Shown in pieces: positions 1 to 26,470 of a stretch of DNA of 32,000 nucleotides. Location: assembly GCF_001457595.1 (NCBI RefSeq), contig NZ_LN831039.1:5490001-5522000 (forward strand). The letters run 5' to 3'. Position 1 is the first letter of the stretch. Each line of letters begins with the position of its first letter. Made by a program: the position numbers and the translations under genes. The stretch comes from Mycolicibacterium smegmatis (GTDB taxonomy: Bacteria > Actinomycetota > Actinomycetes > Mycobacteriales > Mycobacteriaceae). The notes beneath the pieces are model-generated. The model saw only the letters and a program-made list of their open reading frames with translations, was not told where the DNA came from and did no database searches.

Positions 1-1353
1 GAGTACAAGCCGATGCTGGACTCGGCGCTCCAGATCGCCGAGCACACCCCGCAGGCGTGCGTCATCCTGCAGCGCGATCAGAAACCCTGCGACCTGATCG
101 AGGGGCGCGACGTCGACTGGCACGAACTGGTGGCCACGGCCGAACCGGCCGATCCGGTCCCGGTGGCCGCCACCGACCCGCTGTACGTGCTGTACACGTC
201 CGGCACCACCGGCAAGCCCAAGGGCATCGTCCGCGACAACGGCGGACACGCGGTGGCGCTGCTGTGGTCGATGCGCAACATCTACGGCATCGAACCCGGC
301 GACGTGTTCTGGACGGCGTCCGACGTGGGCTGGGTGGTCGGGCACTCCTACATCGTGTATGCGCCGCTGATGCTGGGCGCGACAACCGTTCTGTACGAAG
401 GCAAACCGGTCGGCACACCCGACGCGGGCGCCTTCTGGCGCGTCATCTCCGAACACAAGGTGAAGGCGTTGTTCACCGCGCCGACCGCAGTGCGCGCGAT
501 CAAGAAGGAAGACCCCGAAGGCGCGCGCATGCGCGACTACGACCTGTCGAGCCTGAAGTATCTGTTCCAGGCCGGCGAGCGCCTCGATCCGGACACCTAC
601 CACTGGGCCGCCTGGAGACTCGGCAAGCCCGTCATCGACCACTGGTGGCAGACCGAGACAGGCTGGGCGATCGCGGCCAACCCGGCCGGCCTCGAACTCA
701 TGCCGGTCAAGCCCGGTTCGGCGACCGTGCCGATGCCCGGTTACGACGTGCAGATTCTGCGGGCCGACGGCTCCGTCGCCGATCCGAACGAAGAAGGCGC
801 GATCTGCATCAAGCTGCCGCTGCCGCCGGGCACGCTGCCCACCGTGTGGGGCGACGACCAGCGCTACATCTCCTCGTACCTGTCGGCGTTCGAGGGCTAT
901 TACCTCACCGGTGACGGCGGCTACATCGACGAAGACGGCTACCTGTTCGTCATGGGCCGCACCGACGACGTCATCAACGTGGCCGGCCACCGCCTGTCGA
1001 CAGGGTCGATCGAGGCCGTGCTCGCCGAGCATCCCGCGGTCGCCGAGTGTGCCGTGATCGGTGTGGCCGACGAACTCAAGGGGCAGGTGCCGCGAGGGTT
1101 CGTGGTGCTCAAATCCGGTGCGTCCGCCGACAAGCTGGGTGACGAGCTGATCCAGAAGGTACGCGAGAGCATCGGCGCCGTTGCCGTTTTCAAGTCCGTC
1201 GACGTGGTGTCGGCGCTGCCGAAGACCCGCTCGGGCAAGATCCTGCGCAAGACCATGCGCGGTATCGCCGACGGCAAGGACGAGCCCGTGCCCTCGACGA
1301 TCGAGGACCCCTCGGTGCTCGACGACCTCAAGTCGGTGTTGCGCCGGGGCTGA
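1..1353 (+). CDS. prpE: AMP-forming acyl-CoA synthetase (propionate/acetate--CoA ligase family), 5' end cut by the window edge
   Basis: Frame 1 is open from base 1 (EYKP precedes the listed Met at 13). It carries the AMP-binding signature YTSGTTGKPKG. The C-terminal LPKTRSGKILRKTMR...TIEDPSVLDDL tail is closer to PrpE than to Acs as I recall them. Stop TGA at 1351-1353. Confidence 0.8.
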   Translation, partial: EYKPMLDSALQIAEHTPQACVILQRDQKPCDLIEGRDVDWHELVATAEPADPVPVAATDPLYVLYTSGTTGKPKGIVRDNGGHAVALLWSMRNIYGIEPGDVFWTASDVGWVVGHSYIVYAPLMLGATTVLYEGKPVGTPDAGAFWRVISEHKVKALFTAPTAVRAIKKEDPEGARMRDYDLSSLKYLFQAGERLDPDTYHWAAWRLGKPVIDHWWQTETGWAIAANPAGLELMPVKPGSATVPMPGYDVQILRADGSVADPNEEGAICIKLPLPPGTLPTVWGDDQRYISSYLSAFEGYYLTGDGGYIDEDGYLFVMGRTDDVINVAGHRLSTGSIEAVLAEHPAVAECAVIGVADELKGQVPRGFVVLKSGASADKLGDELIQKVRESIGAVAVFKSVDVVSALPKTRSGKILRKTMRGIADGKDEPVPSTIEDPSVLDDLKSVLRRG

Positions 1354-3271
1354 TCCAGGCGCGGTTGCTCAGCAGGCGAAGGCCGTTGAGCGCCACCAAG
1401 ATCGTCGACCCTTCATGTCCGGCCACACCGAGCGGTAACGGCAAGTGGCCGAACAGGTCCCACAGGACCAGCGTGGTGATCGCGGCGCCGGCCATCACGA
1501 GGTTCGCGATGACGACGCGTCGGGCCCGCCGCGCCAGTGCGATCACCGCGGGGACGGTGGCGAGTTCGTCGCGGATGGTGACGACGTCGGCGGTCTGGAC
1601 CGTCAGGTCCGCACCCGCCCTGCCCATCGCGATCGAGGTGTGCGCGGCGGCCATCGCGGGTGCGTCGTTGACGCCGTCGCCCACCACGAGCACGTGCGTG
1701 TTGTCGCGCTGAAGTTTCTGCACCGCAGCAGCTTTGCCGTCGGGGAGGAGTTCGGCGTGCACGTCGGCGATGCCGGCCTCCTCCGCCAGTCGTCCGGCGG
1801 CGCGACGGTTGTCACCGGTCAGCAGCATGGGTGGGTGTTTGGTCAACTGCGCCAACTGCATCACGGCGGCAGGAGCGTCGGGCCGCAGCCGGTCGGCCAG
1901 GCCGATGACACCGACGGGTAGCCCGTCCTCGAGGACGACGACGGCGGTGCCACCGTCGTTCTCGATCGCGGCGCAGTGCTCGCGCACGGCCCCGTCCTTC
2001 CCCGCGAAAGCTGCGGGGCTGACGACCTCGACGACGTGCCCGGCCACACGCGCGCGCACGCCCCGGCCCGGAAGTGCCGTGAAGTCACCGGCCTCAGGTA
2101 CCACGCGCCCGCGCGCCGCCGCGACGATCGCGCGCCCCAATGGATGCTCACTGAACTGTTCTGCGGCAGCGGCCATCCCGAGCACATCGGCACCGTCAAT
2201 GAGCACGGTCACCCGCGAGATCACAGGCTCCCCCGACGTCAACGTCCCGGTCTTGTCGAGCACCACCACGTCGGTATCGGCCAACCGCTCCATCGCGACC
2301 GCAGATTTCACCAGCACGCCGTGCCTGCTCGCGTTCGCGATCGCCGACAACAGCGGCGGCATGGTCGCGAGCACCACCGCGCACGGCGACGCCACGATCA
2401 TGAACGTCATGGCGCGCAACAGCGTCGAGCGCAAATCGGCGCCGAACATCAGCGGCACGGTGAACAACGCGAGGGTCGCGACAACCACGCCCGCCGAGTA
2501 GCGCTGCTCGATCTTCTCGATGAACAGTTGCGTGGTGGCCTTGGTCGCCGATGCCTCGGCCACCATCGCCACTATGCGCGCCACCACGGTCTGCGAGGGT
2601 TCGCGCGTCACCTCGACGCGCAGCGCACCCGAACCGTTGACGGTCCCGGCGAACACGTCGTCGCCGACGTCCTTCGCGGCGGGCAGTGGCTCCCCGGTGA
2701 TCGAGGACTGGTCGACCTCCGAGGCACCGCCGATCACTGTGCCGTCAGCCGAGATTCGCTCGCCCGGACGCACCACGATGACGTCGCCGGGCCGCAGATC
2801 GGCGGCGGCGACCACACGTTGGGACCCGTCGCCGAGGAGGGTGGCGTGCTCGGGAGCGAGGTCGAGCAACCCGCGCACCGACCGCTCGGTCCTTGTGGTC
2901 GCCACATCTTCGAGCGCGCCCGACGTCGCAAAGATGACGATCAACAGCGCACCGTCGAACACCTGCCCGATGGTGGCCGCACCGATCGCTGCGACGATCA
3001 TCAGCAGGTCGACGTCGAGTGTGCGGTTGCGTAAGGCCCGCACGCCGACCCACGCGGGTTCCCAGCCACCGACGACGTAGCAGGCCAGGTACAACGTCCA
3101 GACCACGGCCTGCGGTGCTCCGAGGAGTTGCGCGGCCAGTCCGGTGAGAAACAGTGCGAGTGCCGCGGCGGCCCACCGAACGGAGGGCACCGTCCACAGC
3201 CAACCGCCGGATCGCGGTCGCGCCGGGCGGGCCGAAGGTGCGGGTTCGACGGCGGGATACAGCGCGGTCAT
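1328..3271 (-). CDS. ctpD: P1B-4-type heavy-metal (Co2+/Ni2+) exporting P-type ATPase
   Basis: 647-aa ORF with DKTGTLT phosphorylation site, TGDN and GDGVNDAP motifs. It has the transmembrane SPC motif (IVASPCAVV) and HEGST in the last TM segment, and no N-terminal CxxC metal-binding domain. It is divergent from an NmtR-type sensor, like ctpJ-nmtR in M. tuberculosis. Its position relative to eno fits M. smegmatis CtpD from memory. Its 3' end overlaps prpE by 26 nt in convergent orientation. Confidence 0.85.
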   Translation of the reverse strand: MTALYPAVEPAPSARPARPRSGGWLWTVPSVRWAAAALALFLTGLAAQLLGAPQAVVWTLYLACYVVGGWEPAWVGVRALRNRTLDVDLLMIVAAIGAATIGQVFDGALLIVIFATSGALEDVATTRTERSVRGLLDLAPEHATLLGDGSQRVVAAADLRPGDVIVVRPGERISADGTVIGGASEVDQSSITGEPLPAAKDVGDDVFAGTVNGSGALRVEVTREPSQTVVARIVAMVAEASATKATTQLFIEKIEQRYSAGVVVATLALFTVPLMFGADLRSTLLRAMTFMIVASPCAVVLATMPPLLSAIANASRHGVLVKSAVAMERLADTDVVVLDKTGTLTSGEPVISRVTVLIDGADVLGMAAAAEQFSEHPLGRAIVAAARGRVVPEAGDFTALPGRGVRARVAGHVVEVVSPAAFAGKDGAVREHCAAIENDGGTAVVVLEDGLPVGVIGLADRLRPDAPAAVMQLAQLTKHPPMLLTGDNRRAAGRLAEEAGIADVHAELLPDGKAAAVQKLQRDNTHVLVVGDGVNDAPAMAAAHTSIAMGRAGADLTVQTADVVTIRDELATVPAVIALARRARRVVIANLVMAGAAITTLVLWDLFGHLPLPLGVAGHEGSTILVALNGLRLLSNRAWISPGATPT

Positions 3272-3305: not shown

Positions 3306-3335
3306 TTTATACATGTAAAGATTTAAATGTATCAA
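3306..3335. promoter_or_regulatory. Imperfect 30-bp palindrome in the AT-rich ctpD/nmtR divergent promoter; candidate ArsR/NmtR operator
   Basis: TTTATACATGTAAAGATTTAAATGTATCAA has half-sites TTTATACAT and ATGTATCAA separated by 12 nt. It sits in the only AT-rich stretch of the 96-bp intergenic region between two divergent metal genes. Confidence 0.45.
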
Positions 3336-3367
3336 TGCTCACTTGCGTGCCATGCGAGAATGGGCGC

Positions 3368-3721
3368 ATGGGTCATGGTGTCGAGGGGCGTTCCACGCCC
3401 GCCGCATCGCTCGATGCCGCGTCAGCGGTCAAGGTCGCCGAGACACTGCAGGCCCTGGCGTCTCCCAACCGATTGCTGATCTTGACTCGGCTGCGCGAAT
3501 CCCCCTGCTCGGTCACCGAACTGTCGGCGGCGGTCGGGATGGAGCAACCTGCGGTGTCCAACCAGTTGCGCCTGTTGCGGACGCTGGGACTGGTGACCGG
3601 AGACCGGTCGGGGCGCAACATCGTCTACCGGCTCTACGACAGCCACGTCGCGCAACTGCTCGATGAGGCGATCTACCACATCGAACATCTGCGACTCGGC
3701 GTTCGCGACGGCACCGCCTGA
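3368..3721 (+). CDS. nmtR: ArsR/SmtB-family Ni(II)/Co(II)-sensing repressor, NmtR type
   Basis: Starting at ATG 3368 gives a 117-aa protein, MGHGVEGR..., whose N-terminus is identical to M. tuberculosis NmtR as I recall it. It has a winged-helix core (LASPNRLLIL...ELSAAVGMEQPAVSNQLRLLR). Asp91, His93, His104 and His107 fall at exactly the alpha5-site positions described for NmtR. The longer ORF-track start at 3128 would overlap ctpD and the promoter. Confidence 0.85.
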   Translation: MGHGVEGRSTPAASLDAASAVKVAETLQALASPNRLLILTRLRESPCSVTELSAAVGMEQPAVSNQLRLLRTLGLVTGDRSGRNIVYRLYDSHVAQLLDEAIYHIEHLRLGVRDGTA

Positions 3722-3941
3722 GCCAGATCCGGCTGCGGGCAAGAGAATTTCATTTGCCGTCACACACTCGTCACACATCTGAGGCTGCGGCGGCAAAACG
3801 CCGGGCGATCACTGGAATCCTTTATTTTCGCCCTGAGCCGAACTATCGTTGAGTTGTTATAAGTTGATATCCGCCTGAGCTCGGGCGATTTGCTACCGCG
3901 CAGTACCAGCGACGCTTGGGCACGTTAGGAGTTGAGCAACG

Positions 3942-4040
3942 ATGCGCATCGCAACCAAGGGAAACTGCACCTGTCGCTGCAACGCATGCGACGGAGGCCA
4001 CCACTGCGGAAACCCGCCGAACTGCAACGTGCGGCGCTGA
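3942..4040 (+). CDS. Unannotated 32-aa Cys/His-rich mini-protein MRIATKGNCTCRCNACDGGHHCGNPPNCNVRR (metallothionein-like, or a Cys-rich leader peptide)
   Basis: ATG at 3942 follows AGGAG (3927-3931) with a 10-nt spacer. An in-frame TGA two codons upstream fixes the start. It has 6 Cys and 2 His spaced CxCxCxxC-x3-HHC-x5-C. Third positions are G/C in 25 of 31 codons. Stop TGA at 4038-4040 is followed by two stem-loops. It is shorter than the 60-aa ORF-track cut-off. Confidence 0.55.
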   Translation: MRIATKGNCTCRCNACDGGHHCGNPPNCNVRR

Positions 4041-4047
4041 CGCCGTA

Positions 4048-4084
4048 GGTGACCTGCCGCCGACCATCGCGCGGCAGGTCATCC
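4048..4084 (+). terminator. Stem-loop directly after the Cys-rich ORF (11-13 bp stem, no U tract)
   Basis: TGACCTGCCGC (4050-4060) pairs perfectly with GCGGCAGGTCA (4071-4081) around a 10-nt loop. Confidence 0.5.
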
Positions 4085-4093
4085 CATACCTCT

Positions 4094-4134
4094 GAGCCCA
4101 TCGATCACGCCGATCGATCGGGCTCTTTCGGTTT
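4094..4134 (+). terminator. Second stem-loop with a T-rich tail (intrinsic-terminator-like)
   Basis: GAGCCCATCGATC (4094-4106) pairs with GATCGATCGGGCTC (4112-4125), giving 13 bp with one bulged C and a 5-nt loop. TTTCGGTTT follows. Confidence 0.5.
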
Positions 4135-4158
4135 CACGCCAGACACTCCGCGTGTCCG

Positions 4159-4164
4159 TATGCT
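4159..4164 (+). promoter_or_regulatory. Possible -10 hexamer TATGCT for a leaderless transcript starting at GTG 4171
   Basis: It fits the mycobacterial TANNNT -10 pattern and ends 6 nt before the GTG start of the ZIP-like gene. No Shine-Dalgarno sequence lies in between. Confidence 0.3.
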
Positions 4165-4170
4165 CACGCT

Positions 4171-4872
4171 GTGCTCACCGCGCTCCTCTGGGGCCTCGTC
4201 GCTGCGTCCTCTCTGCTCGTCGGAGCCGTGGCCGGCACCGTCCGCGACTGGAACGAGCGTCTGGTCGGTCTGGTCCTCGGCTTCGGTGCCGGCGCGCTGA
4301 TCTCCAGCATCTCGTTCGAACTCGCCGAGGAAGGCGTTCGGGTCAGCGGTGCTCTGGCCGTCGCACTCGGCCTGGCAATCGGCGCCGTCGTGTTCTACGT
4401 GGCCGACAAGACGGTGGATCGCATGGGCCGCACCGGTGGCGGGGCGGGCATGCCCCTGCTGTTGGGGGCGCTTCTCGATGGCATACCGGAACAGGCCGTG
4501 CTCGGTATCGGCATCGCGGGCGGCGCCGGGGTGAGCATGGCACTCCTGGTGGCGATCTTCGTGTCGAACCTGCCCGAGTCGATCGGATCGGCCAGTGACA
4601 TGAGGAGCGCCGGCCACCCGGTACGCACGATTCTCGGTGGCTGGGCGGCGATCTCGGCACTGTGCGCGGTAGCCACCGTGGGCGGCTACCAGTTGCAGAA
4701 GGTCGCCGGTGCGGCGCTGCAGGGCGGGATCAACGGATTCGCCGCGGGGGCACTGCTTGTCATGCTCGTCGGGTCGATGATTCCCGAGGCCACGCAGAAG
4801 GCCCGTGAGAATGCCGGACTCGCGGCAGTTCTCGGATTCGCCGTCGCCGCCGGTCTGTCGCTCGCCACCTGA
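4171..4872 (+). CDS. ZIP-family (ZupT/GufA-like) divalent-metal permease, non-canonical motif variant
   Basis: 233-aa polytopic membrane protein that aligns by eye with E. coli ZupT. DGIPEQ and SNLPES stand where ZupT has HNFPEG and HNIPEG, and GSMIPEA stands where ZupT has DELMPLA. GTG start at 4171. Confidence 0.75.
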   Translation: MLTALLWGLVAASSLLVGAVAGTVRDWNERLVGLVLGFGAGALISSISFELAEEGVRVSGALAVALGLAIGAVVFYVADKTVDRMGRTGGGAGMPLLLGALLDGIPEQAVLGIGIAGGAGVSMALLVAIFVSNLPESIGSASDMRSAGHPVRTILGGWAAISALCAVATVGGYQLQKVAGAALQGGINGFAAGALLVMLVGSMIPEATQKARENAGLAAVLGFAVAAGLSLAT

Positions 4873-4896: not shown

Positions 4897-5682
4897 GTGG
4901 CTCCCCAATGGCACCTGGGCCCCGTGACCGTCGGGGTCCACGGATTGTTCGTCGCGCTCGCAGTGTTCGCCGCGGTCCTGGTGTTCAGCCACGAGGCCCG
5001 TCGACGCGGCGCGGTCAACGAGCAGTCGATCGTGGCGGTGGCCGGTGCGCTGATCGGCGGCGCGATCGGCATGCGACTGTCGGGCTGGGCCCAGCACCTC
5101 GATCTCAGCGCGAATCCGAGTCTGGCACAGGCCTGGGAGTTCGGCTCCCGCAGCATCCTCGGTGGACTGCTGGGCGCCTACATCGGCGTACACGTCGCCA
5201 AACGTCTCGGCGGCTACCGCGGCAAGACCGGCGATCTGTTCGCACCGGCGGTCGCGCTGGGCATGGCCATCGGCCGCATCGGTTGCCTGCTCACCGAGGC
5301 CCCCGGGCGGCCCACGAACCTGCCATGGGGCATCCACGCGCCGGCCAGCACTCCGGAATGTCCCGCGTGCCTGACGGGTCAGGCCATGCATCCGTCATTC
5401 GTGTACGAGATCGTGTTCCAGCTGGTTGCTTTCGCGGTGCTGCTGTGGCTGCGCAACCGCATCACCCACCCCGGCGAGTTGTTCGTCATCTACATCGCCG
5501 CCTACGCGGTGTTCCGATTCTTCGTCGAGTTCTTCCGCGCCAACGAAACAGTGTGGCTGGATCTCACCCGGCCACAATGGTTCCTGCTGCCCACGTTGCT
5601 GATCATCGGGTTTCGGCTGTGCTACGGCTACCGGCACGGTTACTATCGGCGCGCAGCCCGCAGTGAGGAAGTGCCGGTATGA
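4897..5682 (+). CDS. Lgt-family protein (prolipoprotein diacylglyceryl transferase paralogue) with an altered active-site motif
   Basis: It aligns along its length with E. coli Lgt: N-terminal GPVTVGVHGLF, GRIGC (canonical GRLGN), MHPSFVYE (HPSQLYE), and YAVFRFFVEFFR (YGAFRIIVEFFR). GTG start lies 24 nt after the ZIP stop, and the stop overlaps the next start (ATGA). Confidence 0.85.
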   Translation: MAPQWHLGPVTVGVHGLFVALAVFAAVLVFSHEARRRGAVNEQSIVAVAGALIGGAIGMRLSGWAQHLDLSANPSLAQAWEFGSRSILGGLLGAYIGVHVAKRLGGYRGKTGDLFAPAVALGMAIGRIGCLLTEAPGRPTNLPWGIHAPASTPECPACLTGQAMHPSFVYEIVFQLVAFAVLLWLRNRITHPGELFVIYIAAYAVFRFFVEFFRANETVWLDLTRPQWFLLPTLLIIGFRLCYGYRHGYYRRAARSEEVPV

Positions 5683-6321: not shown

Positions 6322-7890
6322 ATGACCACCGGCATGGGGCTGCGCGGTGACCGCCTGCACCGTTACGTCACCGCGTTCTGCCCGCACTGCCACGCCGAAG
6401 CGCCCGAGCGCCCACTGGCGGACGTGCAGCGGCTCGCCGCGATGCTGATCGAGCGCGACGGACGGATCTGGCTCGAACGTGGCTGCCCGACACACGGTTT
6501 GGTGCGCACCCTGTACGACGAGGATCCCGAGATCCTCTCCTACCTCGAGGAGTGGACGGCACCCACCAAGGCCCACACCCCCGATGTCGCAGGCAACTTC
6601 GACCCGGTCCCGTCGGCATATCTGCGCGGCCTGCCGGAGATGCAGACCCAGCACACCTGCATCCTGCTGGAGGACATCTCCGAGGCGTGCAACCTGCGCT
6701 GCCCCACGTGTTTCACCGACAGTTCCCCCGACCTGCGCAACGTGGTCCCGGTGGCCGAGGTGCTCGCCAACATCGACCAACGCCTCGCGCGCGAGAACGG
6801 CCGCATCGACGTGCTGATGCTCAGCGGTGGCGAGCCCACGCTGCACCCGCAACTACCCACACTGCTGGCCGAGCTGGTGAAGCGGCCCATCACCCGGATC
6901 CTGGTGAACAGCAACGGCGTTCGCATCGCCAACGATGACGCTCTGCTCGACCTGCTGACGCTGCACCGAGAACGCGTCGAGGTGTATCTGCAGTACGACG
7001 GGTTGTCCGCCGAGACACACCGCCACCACCGCGGCGGCGATCTCGGAAGGCTGAAACAGCAGGCCCTGCAACGGCTGTCCGAGCGCGAGATCTTCACGAC
7101 CCTGGTGATGACCGCGACCCTGGGCGTCAACGACCACGAGATCGGGGCCATGGTCCAACTGGCGCTCGACACCCCTTACGTCGGCGGGCTGACCATCCAG
7201 CCCCAGTTCGGTTCGGGCCGTTCGGGTGCGATCGACCCGATGGAGAGGCTCACGCACACAGGCGTCCTGAAACGTATGGGTCCCCAGACCGACGGCGCGG
7301 TCACGTGGCGCGATCTCACCGCGCTGCCGTGCTCGCACCCGCACTGCTGCTCGGTGGGGTACCTGGTGCGCGACGACAGCGACCGGTGGCGCTCGCTGGT
7401 ATCGCTCATCGGAGCCGAGAGCCTCAAGGACAAGCTGGGACTGGTGGCCAACCGCATCGCCGACACCGAGATTCCACGCGAACTCCGCCTGGCCGTGCAG
7501 GAATCGCTGCTCGGACTGCTCTCCGAGCAGTCCTCGTTGTCCCATCCGGAGATCGGTGACGTGTGGCGCAACATCTGTGAGAACTGCGATCTGGGCATGT
7601 CGACGCTGTTGACGCTGGCGTCGTCGGCGCTTCCCGGCCGCAGGCGCAAGATCCGCAGACTCCTCGGCGAGCGCGTCGTGCGCCTGACCGTCAAACCGTT
7701 CATGGACATGTCGACGATGATCGAGGAGCGCCTCATCCAGTGCTGCGTGCACGTCGGGACCCGCTCGACCGAACAGCATCAATGCGCGCCGTTCTGCGCC
7801 GTACAGGCCTGGCCCGCACTGAGCCGCCAACGCCTGTCGCTCGCCTCCCAAGCCACGATGCCCGCGTTACCCCTCATCGAGATCCGATGA
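6322..7890 (+). CDS. Radical SAM enzyme with an N-terminal rubredoxin/zinc-ribbon-like module and C-terminal auxiliary Cys clusters (COG1964 / class-D / Tes-GDGT-MAS-like architecture)
   Basis: CNLRCPTC (C123-x3-C127-x2-C130) and SGGEP (168-172) are present. The N-terminus has C20-x2-C23...C55-x2-H58. Extra Cys lie at 337/342/343, 419/422 and 474/475/488/492, the last group in the pattern CCVH...CAPFC. VKPFMD is also present. Confidence 0.85.
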   Translation: MTTGMGLRGDRLHRYVTAFCPHCHAEAPERPLADVQRLAAMLIERDGRIWLERGCPTHGLVRTLYDEDPEILSYLEEWTAPTKAHTPDVAGNFDPVPSAYLRGLPEMQTQHTCILLEDISEACNLRCPTCFTDSSPDLRNVVPVAEVLANIDQRLARENGRIDVLMLSGGEPTLHPQLPTLLAELVKRPITRILVNSNGVRIANDDALLDLLTLHRERVEVYLQYDGLSAETHRHHRGGDLGRLKQQALQRLSEREIFTTLVMTATLGVNDHEIGAMVQLALDTPYVGGLTIQPQFGSGRSGAIDPMERLTHTGVLKRMGPQTDGAVTWRDLTALPCSHPHCCSVGYLVRDDSDRWRSLVSLIGAESLKDKLGLVANRIADTEIPRELRLAVQESLLGLLSEQSSLSHPEIGDVWRNICENCDLGMSTLLTLASSALPGRRRKIRRLLGERVVRLTVKPFMDMSTMIEERLIQCCVHVGTRSTEQHQCAPFCAVQAWPALSRQRLSLASQATMPALPLIEIR

Positions 7891-26398: not shown

Positions 26399-26470
26399 TC
26401 CGTCGTGGTGTAATCGGCAGCACCTCTGATTTTGGTTCAGATAGTTCAGGTTCGAGTCCTGGCGACGGAG
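26399..26470 (+). tRNA. glnU: tRNA-Gln (anticodon UUG)
   Basis: Hand-folded cloverleaf. Acceptor TCCGTCG / CGACGGA. D arm GTGT-AATCGGCA-GCAC. Anticodon arm TCTGA-TTTTGGT-TCAGA. T arm TCAGG-TTCGAGT-CCTGG. Discriminator G. CCA is not encoded. Confidence 0.85.

Follow-up and report, generated by a model that had tools for sequence, protein, structure and literature searches.

The small metal-thiolate proteins are a familiar class in bacteria. Their nearest mycobacterial example for the gene treated here is the copper metallothionein MymT (Rv0186A, 53 amino acids), and the nearest characterised bacterial family is SmtA/BmtA (PF02069, Metallothio_Pro). Short cysteine-rich reading frames of another kind are known in mycobacteria as well, i.e. 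upstream open reading frames (uORFs) such as the leaderless polycysteine frames in the leaders of cysA2, nirA and Rv0485 (PMC4633059; bioRxiv 10.1101/834739). Here we describe a small open reading frame (sORF) of 32 codons in a 32,000-nucleotide stretch of the Mycolicibacterium smegmatis chromosome (NZ_LN831039.1, positions 5,490,001 to 5,522,000; this whole stretch is referred to as the window). It lies in the gap between the genes of an ArsR/SmtB regulator and a ZIP-family transporter. An earlier note on this DNA had pointed out a six-Cys, two-His peptide and had offered three readings: (a) a minimal metal-binding protein, (b) a leader peptide rich in Cys codons and (c) a precursor peptide for a radical SAM enzyme encoded downstream. 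The comparison with other genomes leaves us highly confident that the 99-nt ORF is a real translated gene. That its product binds metal is probable.

Results

Conservation of the sORF

The ORF begins with ATG at 3942 and ends with TGA at 4038-4040, in the reading of the sequence and in the ORF list alike. Its product, MRIATKGNCTCRCNACDGGHHCGNPPNCNVRR, has Cys at positions 9, 11, 13, 16, 22 and 28 and His at 20 and 21. The six Cys account for 19% of its 32 residues and are arranged as CxCxCxxC, HHC and a single C. Phe, Tyr and Trp are absent; a few relatives have a Tyr at position 29. A signal peptide and a hydrophobic stretch are lacking, and both termini are basic (MR.. at the N-terminus, ..RR, RK or KK at the C-terminus). 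An in-frame TGA (3933-3935) is separated from the ATG by two codons, and 25 of the 31 codons that follow the ATG end in G or C (hand count). The ORF, its Cys and His positions, the in-frame stop and the codon count, as well as the Shine-Dalgarno sequence and the two following stem-loops listed in Table 1, agree with the earlier description. The DNA pattern for CxCxCxxCxxxHHC was matched once in the 32-kb window and not at all in 100 shuffles.

A degenerate DNA motif scan, with one genome per species, returned at least 120 loci of which 60 belong to the family. Counts of 61 loci given below refer to the window plus these 60 family loci among the matches listed. The same small ORF was thus present in at least 60 further loci, all from Mycobacterium/Mycolicibacterium or unnamed actinobacterial metagenome-assembled genomes (MAGs). 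The remaining 60 listed matches were scattered, without ORF features, and are ascribed to chance. Among the mycobacterial loci recovered, the family is seen only in fast-growing species. Family ORFs encode 31-44 amino acids and have the stop at an identical position in all loci. GGAG or AGAGG precedes the common ATG by about 8-13 nt in nearly all of them; an automatic check was negative only for L010. The family consensus is M-R-x-S-E-x-K-A-G-S-G-C-x-C-x-C-N-A-C-D-G-G-H-H-C-G-N-P-P-N-C-N-[VI]-R-[RK], and two main subtypes end in ...HHCGNPPNCN[VI]R[RK] and ...HHCHNIGSGCKVK[PL], respectively.

Conservation in 60 other loci lifts the ORF far beyond chance. The earlier note had named frameshifts or stops in relatives as one result that would speak against it. 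Instead, frame, ATG and stop are kept across the 61 loci together with the Cys/His spacing, and substitutions are biased towards synonymous ones. pN/pS was 0.23 and 0.33 for the two subtypes (pS 0.63 and 0.39), calculated from codons that were not forced by the search pattern. Column entropies summed over codon positions 1, 2 and 3 were 7.2, 5.6 and 22.6 in 44 distinct nucleotide sequences and 5.4, 4.7 and 18.2 in 13 sequences. The other five frames contain stops in 18-50 of the 61 loci; the antisense frame that shares the third positions is interrupted in 50. C9, C11, C13, C16, H21, C22 and C28 are invariant in family loci and database relatives and G19 is nearly so. The spacing that had been described for the window peptide therefore holds across relatives for seven residues, yet not for H20, which is A, S or R in some of them. 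Residues on which the search pattern had no bearing (D17, G19, N24, P26, N27 and C28) hardly change, if at all, whereas the third positions of their codons are variable. G19, N24, P26 and N27 are among these, and the pattern of substitutions indicates that purifying selection acts on the peptide itself and extends to non-Cys residues.

Automated annotation has passed over the gene, as the earlier note had supposed. No gene is called at the locus in six assemblies that carry it, and the exact product was absent from a collection of 15 billion proteins and from every other source consulted. None of the ten ORFs of at least 30 amino acids in the gap was present in the protein collection, and a chimeric query composed of all other frames of the gap matched no annotated protein. 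A profile search of 5.8 billion proteins, using an alignment with a 44-amino-acid family member as its first row, returned 39 clusters, nearly all of 31-56 amino acids and labelled 'hypothetical protein'; two are misleadingly named 'calcium-binding protein' and 'EGF-like domain-containing protein'. A HMMER search with the single peptide against 1.84 billion representatives yielded only two true small relatives. Its top match, P0001 (943 amino acids), is a 12-fold tandem-repeat protein that matches the string CGNPP.C only and was discarded as a chance or compositional match. Pfam and NCBIfam hold no family for the peptide, a sequence profile search of the PDB with the family gave no match, no copies were found on viral contigs or plasmids, and the family motif strings did not turn up in the literature searched. 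Rfam gave no match in the sORF region; its only match within the window was a tRNA gene at 26399-26470 (56.6 bits). The family is without name or description.

Table 1. Positions of the sORF and of surrounding features in the window.
Feature	Position	Strand	Remarks
prpE (MSMEG_5404)	13..1353		partial ORF; 623-aa protein
Heavy-metal P1B-type ATPase	1328..3271	-	
ArsR/SmtB regulator (MSMEG_5405)	3368..3721	+	
Hairpin after ArsR gene	3753..3797	+	inverted repeat, 17-nt arms, 76% complementary
A+T-rich block CCTTTATTTTC	3819..3829	+	from upstream alignment of 59 family loci
Promoter/operator-like 32-nt element CGAACTATCGTTGAGTTGTTATAAGTTGATAT	3839..3870	+	family consensus CGAACTATTGTGAAGTCGTCATATGTTGATAT
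Small hairpin CCGCCTGAGCTCGGGCG	3871..3887	+	predicted, RNA fold of 3871-4140; start of presumed 5' untranslated region
Shine-Dalgarno AGGAG	3927-3931	+	10 nt 5' of ATG
Micro-protein gene	3942..4040	+	32 codons + stop; product MRIATKGNCTCRCNACDGGHHCGNPPNCNVRR
Hairpin 1	4048..4083	+	starts 8 nt past stop; perfect 11-bp core, extended stem, no U tail
Hairpin 2 + U-rich tail TTTCGGTTT	4094..4125 + 4126..4134	+	fold and inverted-repeat analyses
ZIP-family transporter	4171..4872		233-aa membrane protein; close relatives carry PF02535 and the NCBI name ZIP family metal transporter
Radical SAM protein	6322-7890	+	522 aa; sORF strand; starts 2.28 kb downstream of sORF

A probable metal-binding peptide

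Seven invariant soft ligands in the conserved spacing CxCxCxxC-x4-HC-x5/6-C give the peptide the look of a small metal-thiolate site or cluster. Operationally, a metallothionein has a low mass, at least about 15% Cys placed in CxC/CxxC motifs, and aromatic residues that are rare or absent; the sORF product shows all three. Binding of metal through the Cys/His set is, in our view, probable. The module C-x-C-x-C-x2-C-D-x-G-H-H-C-x5/6-C also forms the C-terminal ~25 residues of proteins of about 100 amino acids which lack a Pfam domain (P0037-P0040). In MAGs of Patescibacteria/Saccharibacteria it occurs as small ORFs with promoter-like and terminator-like strings of their own. Non-mycobacterial occurrences are L070, L088, L096 and L127-L133 and the proteins P0036-P0040. 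A metagenome scan for the CDQGHHC variant gave 8 loci; the neighbourhoods of L070, L088 and L132, which have this variant, gave no clue to function. Recurrence as a C-terminal domain and as small ORFs fits an autonomous metal-binding mini-domain. In favour of a role with metals, a ZIP transporter gene follows the sORF or the DUF4383 genes described below in 7 loci, and these span three peptide subtypes.

Published expression data provide a lead. Shell et al. list leaderless starts at 5482552 (MSMEG_5404) and 5486438 (MSMEG_5405, ArsR), and as their spacing equals that in the window, genome position is window position plus 5483070. The sORF then maps to about 5487012-5487110 on the plus strand, between MSMEG_5405 and MSMEG_5407. 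Tag numbering places MSMEG_5406 in the 449-bp gap between ArsR and ZIP genes that contains the sORF; this argument takes MSMEG_5408 to be the Lgt paralogue and MSMEG_5407 to be the gene of the 'integral membrane protein'. In strand-specific RNA-seq of M. smegmatis, MSMEG_5406 was 8.97-fold lower 2 h after addition of 10 µM of the chelator TPEN, the second strongest drop after that of the zinc exporter gene zitA (PMC7174638). It is listed there as a 'hypothetical protein' without orthologue in M. tuberculosis or M. avium (PMC7174638). From the numbering it is rather likely that MSMEG_5406 is the sORF transcript. If so, the mRNA would be abundant in normal medium and fall upon chelation, which fits a metal holder and not a scavenger.

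The reading that we prefer overall is that of a stand-alone metallothionein-like or zinc-cluster micro-protein, to which we give about an even chance. This is close to reading (a) of the earlier note, the most plausible of its three. It had likened the Cys/His pattern to that of SmtA/BmtA; the product is not a member of that family, as hmmscan found no match to PF02069 at E up to 10 with the window peptide and 35 family members. A physiological role in metal buffering or hand-over can be proposed with some reserve. Doubtful, finally, is a more far-reaching version in which the sORF would represent an undescribed metal-cluster mini-domain, C-x-C-x-C-x2-C-[DE]-x-G-x-H-C-x5/6-C, and with it a new bacterial class of metallothioneins or zinc buffers under a dedicated, very strongly conserved promoter/operator that responds to metal (about 9-fold down with TPEN). 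The mini-domain would then exist as a free protein of about 35 residues in fast-growing mycobacteria and Patescibacteria and as the C-terminal module of the ~100-residue proteins.

Several points weigh against a metallothionein-like protein. Metal binding is read from the sequence, and the identity of MSMEG_5406 with the sORF from the numbering of tags. MSMEG_5406 is missing from the genes that responded to zinc excess, no dependence on Zur or SmtB was reported for it, and TPEN lowered many apparent stress-regulon genes too (PMC7174638). The AlphaFold model is unstructured (pLDDT 56, no secondary structure) and ligand geometry cannot be read from it; low confidence is expected for a fold which needs metal. 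With six Cys the capacity would not exceed about two Zn, little for a buffer. Spacing and non-ligand residues are strictly conserved, which resembles a structural zinc knuckle more than a plastic metallothionein. Furthermore, the palindrome that is probably the operator of the neighbouring ArsR is unrelated to the motif upstream of the sORF. Last, the ancestral neighbours (prpE, DUF4383, ppx2-like and eno) are not metal genes, and the ArsR/ATPase pair is a lineage-specific insertion.

Gene neighbourhood and a possible structural zinc knuckle

The first gene of the window could be assigned to prpE by Cys 193, 203, 442 and 523 of its product, which are the cysteines listed for MSMEG_5404 (PrpE) in PMC5430705. 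It is convergent with the P-type ATPase gene, and their 3' ends overlap by 26 nt (1328-1353). The 233-amino-acid ZIP-family protein itself had no Pfam match; downstream of its gene, at 4897-5682, lies a second Lgt-like prolipoprotein diacylglyceryl transferase. In the family the common order is a prpE/acs-like ligase (26 loci), the sORF, one or two DUF4383 genes and then, convergent, ppx2-like, ftsB-like and eno genes. kdpDE or another gene is found upstream of the sORF in some other loci. A DUF4383 membrane protein gene is directly downstream on the same strand in 33/61 loci, even with different upstream genes. The ATPase-ArsR pair is inserted between prpE and sORF in the lineage of the window (6 loci). 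According to this synteny prpE and DUF4383 are the ancestral neighbours, and the metal-gene neighbours, i.e. ArsR, P-type ATPase and ZIP, are restricted to few lineages. The 'metal island' of the earlier note thus exists in the window with ATPase, ArsR and ZIP genes as stated; across the family, with ArsR in 6 loci and ZIP in 7 and commonly prpE and DUF4383 instead, it is a local trait that holds in a few lineages.

Just before the DUF4383 gene, strings of the SigF promoter type recur (GGTTT/GGTTAA-N15-GGGTAT/C, e.g. 'GCCGGTTTGCCCCGCGCCGCCCGGGGTATTTC'). They lie in the stretch of 40-200 nt that separates the sORF stop from the DUF4383 gene (L062, L059, L087, L093, L065, L075, L077, L121, L019, L101 and L113). 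Such strings would fit reports on the DosR-independent induction of an M. avium DUF4383 gene by hypoxia (PMC11876180) and on the SigF consensus and SigF activity in hypoxia (PMC6448022). A functional operon of sORF and DUF4383 was considered and rejected, as DUF4383 seems to have its own SigF-type promoter.

Among the alternatives a structural zinc-knuckle micro-protein fares best. There, the metal would only hold the fold, and the basic tails and a surface formed by G19, N24, P26 and N27 would bind a partner. Candidates would be the DUF4383 membrane protein encoded next to the sORF, a transporter, the ribosome and RNA polymerase, in the way that other small proteins of bacteria modulate larger machines. 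The fixed spacing, the conserved non-ligand residues, the basic termini and the use of the module as a C-terminal domain in larger proteins are what one would expect of such a protein. The position of DUF4383, directly downstream also where the upstream gene differs, suits it as well. However, no partner can be named from the data. DUF4383 appears to own a SigF-like promoter (GGTTT-N15-GGGTAT) and is absent from the window and about 28 other loci, and inherited synteny beside ppx2-eno is sufficient to explain the pattern. We consider a zinc knuckle rather unlikely; zinc knuckle and buffer are not separable by sequence.

The upstream element and a possible thiol-stress protein

In 46/61 loci the 32-nt element upstream of the sORF agrees with the consensus CGAACTATTGTGAAGTCGTCATATGTTGATAT in at least 21 positions; it starts 48-103 nt 5' of the ATG. 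A scan with a position weight matrix picked up this site alone in the 32-kb window (score 44), and none of the 60 other loci contained a second one. The element is therefore dedicated to the sORF gene. Because its spacer is conserved too, we read it as a promoter overlapped by a regulator site; it resembles a promoter of the extracytoplasmic function (ECF) sigma factors, SigH/SigE-type. The A+T-rich block, conserved in many loci about 10 nt 5' of the element (consensus 'cCTTtATTTcC'), is possibly an upstream promoter element. The hairpin at 3753-3797 probably ends the ArsR transcription unit and sets it apart from that of the sORF.

Directly before the ribosome-binding site, a 5' untranslated region (5'UTR) hairpin, GAACTCTGCTCCCACC-loop-GGTGGTCAGAGCGA, is conserved in a subgroup of loci (L009, L017, L053, L059, L062, L065, L075, L077, L087, L091, L093, L116, L120 and L121). 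The window carries a different insert (3871-3925) in its place. In the divergent ATPase-ArsR promoter region an A+T-rich palindrome, ATACATGTAAAGATTTAAATGTAT (3306-3337), is probably the ArsR/SmtB operator. Control of the sORF by the adjacent ArsR was dismissed as this palindrome has no counterpart near the sORF.

The resemblance to ECF promoters raises the question whether the sORF encodes a thiol-redox stress protein, i.e. a redox buffer, a zinc-redox switch or an electrophile sink made under control of SigH or SigE in oxidative or disulfide stress, with no task in metal homeostasis. The element reads cGAAC-N19-GTT(GAT), one mismatch from the SigH consensus GGAAY-N18/19-GTT, and has at position 6 the pyrimidine that SigE prefers (consensus sequences: PMC4803200, PMC5430705). 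A relaxed SigH consensus, with one mismatch (cGAACT-N18-GTT), fits 28/61 loci (46%) compared to 2.7% of random 150-nt windows, an enrichment of about 17-fold. Yet the strict consensus fits only 2/61 loci, the first G of GGAA being C in most. The whole 32 nt including the spacer are conserved, atypical of a plain ECF promoter. Moreover, the sequence is not among 124 published M. smegmatis SigH promoters, where unannotated genes perhaps were not scored, and the neighbouring MSMEG_5407, an 'integral membrane protein', rose only about 2-fold with NaOCl (PMC5430705). An imperfect promoter match is all that this reading has in its favour, and we regard it as improbable.

Downstream hairpins and the proposed leader and precursor peptides

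Hairpin 1 shows compensatory changes and its structure is kept in close relatives of the window: CTGCCGC...GCGGCAG in the window, L092 and L111 is CTGTCGT...GCGACAG in L015 and L104. Hairpin 2 is likely the intrinsic terminator of the sORF mRNA, ahead of the ZIP start at 4171; a simple terminator scan did not list it because its tail falls short of 5 T within 8 bases. A further small hairpin (4030-4047) spans the stop codon. The 111-nt stretch 4030-4140 folds at -63.6 kcal/mol compared to -38.0 for shuffles (z = -7.2). Downstream of the stop, hairpins are present in many family loci (mean z -2.4; 26/60 below -2), and some are canonical terminators with U tails. The first downstream gene is convergent in 17/61 loci. 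Together with the upstream element and the hairpins this points to a stand-alone unit with its own transcription. At 4159-4164, 6 nt upstream of the GTG with which the ZIP gene begins, TATGCT is placed as in the promoters of leaderless mycobacterial genes; the published list of leaderless starts does not include that of ZIP.

Under reading (b), ribosomes would stall at the Cys codons during a shortage of Cys-tRNA and thereby decide whether transcription passes the hairpins into the ZIP operon. Six Cys codons within 20 codons, two hairpins between ORF and ZIP gene and the precedent of cysteine-rich uORFs in mycobacteria (PMC4633059) speak for it. It did not hold. Purifying selection extends over the whole peptide and not just the Cys codons, none of which are consecutive. 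Unlike the known polycysteine ORFs, which are leaderless, the sORF is preceded by a 5'UTR with a Shine-Dalgarno sequence. Both hairpins were present in every predicted fold; in the RNA fold of 3871-4140 they form independently and no competing antiterminator pairing was found. The downstream gene is DUF4383, ZIP or convergent depending on species, and a convergent next gene in 17 loci in itself argues against a leader peptide. TPEN lowered MSMEG_5406 9-fold, and MSMEG_5407 does not appear among the listed genes (PMC7174638). We consider a leader peptide highly improbable.

The same applies to reading (c), a precursor peptide of the SCIFF (six Cys in forty-five residues)/ranthipeptide kind that is modified by the radical SAM enzyme encoded 2.3 kb downstream. 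In its favour, the peptide is short with six Cys, and the radical SAM gene is co-oriented with the sORF. However, this gene is present in only 5/61 loci, which excludes a consistent pairing as expected for a ribosomally synthesized, post-translationally modified peptide, and three unrelated genes and the two hairpins intervene. The enzyme has an HMPTM-type N-terminal zinc ribbon and no SPASM-domain match; its best NCBIfam matches, TrsS and the tetraether lipid synthase Tes, are both below threshold. NCBIfam gave no family for the peptide, SCIFF and ranthipeptides included. The N-terminus varies and the core is invariant, whereas precursor peptides usually combine a conserved leader with a variable core, and the proposal was abandoned.

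Finally, the ORF might have arisen by chance in GC-rich DNA between genes, or be conserved on account of an RNA element or antisense gene, as its very short length and several overlapping ORFs of 38-79 amino acids on both strands could suggest. This is excluded as far as sequence comparison reaches, given the synonymous bias in the sORF frame, the interrupted antisense frame, the conserved ATG, Shine-Dalgarno sequence and stop, and the failure of other frames and of Rfam to yield a match, so that we attach next to no weight to it.

Discussion

How might a stand-alone metallothionein-like micro-protein operate? The transcript would start just 3' of the 32-nt element, perhaps an ECF sigma-type promoter overlapped by a regulator site, and would end at the two hairpins ahead of the ZIP gene. 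From this separate transcription unit a cytoplasmic micro-protein of 32 residues would be made. Through its six Cys and His21 it would fold around one or two metal ions, with Zn(II) the favoured ion and Cu(I) a possible one, and the CxCxCxxC spacing suggests a thiolate cluster. The product would thus be a very small metallothionein-like holder or buffer of metal, produced when metal is available.

The gene is a concrete and strongly conserved micro-protein gene with a clear ligand set in a standard model organism, M. smegmatis. Its dedicated cis-element points to a regulator, and the 9-fold drop of MSMEG_5406 with a chelator is a published transcriptome signal. Should the peptide bind metal, few metallothionein-like proteins known to us would be as short, and mycobacterial buffering of zinc, cobalt or copper would gain a new player. 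Small proteins are systematically missed in bacterial genomes, and metal handling in mycobacteria bears on how they cope with metal stress. The family alignment offers annotation pipelines a model for calling the gene.

How does the sORF compare with known systems? With the polycysteine uORFs it shares that it is short, Cys-rich, unannotated and located in mycobacterial intergenic DNA. Those uORFs are leaderless, contain runs of adjacent Cys codons and directly precede operons of sulfur or cysteine metabolism. In the sORF, by contrast, a 5'UTR with a Shine-Dalgarno sequence precedes the ATG, the Cys are spaced, the peptide is conserved, a terminator of its own follows, and the genes downstream vary or are convergent. 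SCIFF/ranthipeptide precursors likewise have six Cys in a peptide of less than 50 amino acids; they differ in that the sORF peptide is in no NCBIfam family, has no adjacent SPASM maturase and does not consistently co-occur with a radical SAM enzyme. The FeoB-associated Cys-rich membrane protein (PF12669) is also small with a Cys-rich C-terminal half, and 16/35 members gave weak matches to it. The best E was 0.18, far below the gathering score, the sORF product has no transmembrane helix and no feoB is nearby; the weak matches reflect Cys composition only.

Closer are the metallothioneins. As in SmtA/BmtA, the ligands are mixed Cys/His, CxC and CxxC motifs are used and the neighbourhood is one of metal homeostasis in some genomes. 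The sORF product has about half the length, seven conserved ligands compared to eleven (Cys9His2), and none of the aromatic residues of the zinc-finger-like core of SmtA. MymT, like the sORF product, is a very small cytoplasmic mycobacterial protein that early annotation missed. Both are rich in CxC, CxxC and H-C motifs and have a Cys region without aromatic residues. They differ in length and in Cys spacing, the sORF product having 32 residues and 6 Cys. A BLASTP comparison, a weak test here, detected no similarity (E = 2.5 over 12 residues). The element upstream of the sORF does not look like operators of the RicR/CsoR type. Among mycobacterial proteins MymT comes closest, and SmtA/BmtA does so among characterised families of bacteria; the sORF product is a member of neither: it belongs to an undescribed Cys/His micro-protein family within a general class, the small metal-thiolate proteins, that is already familiar.

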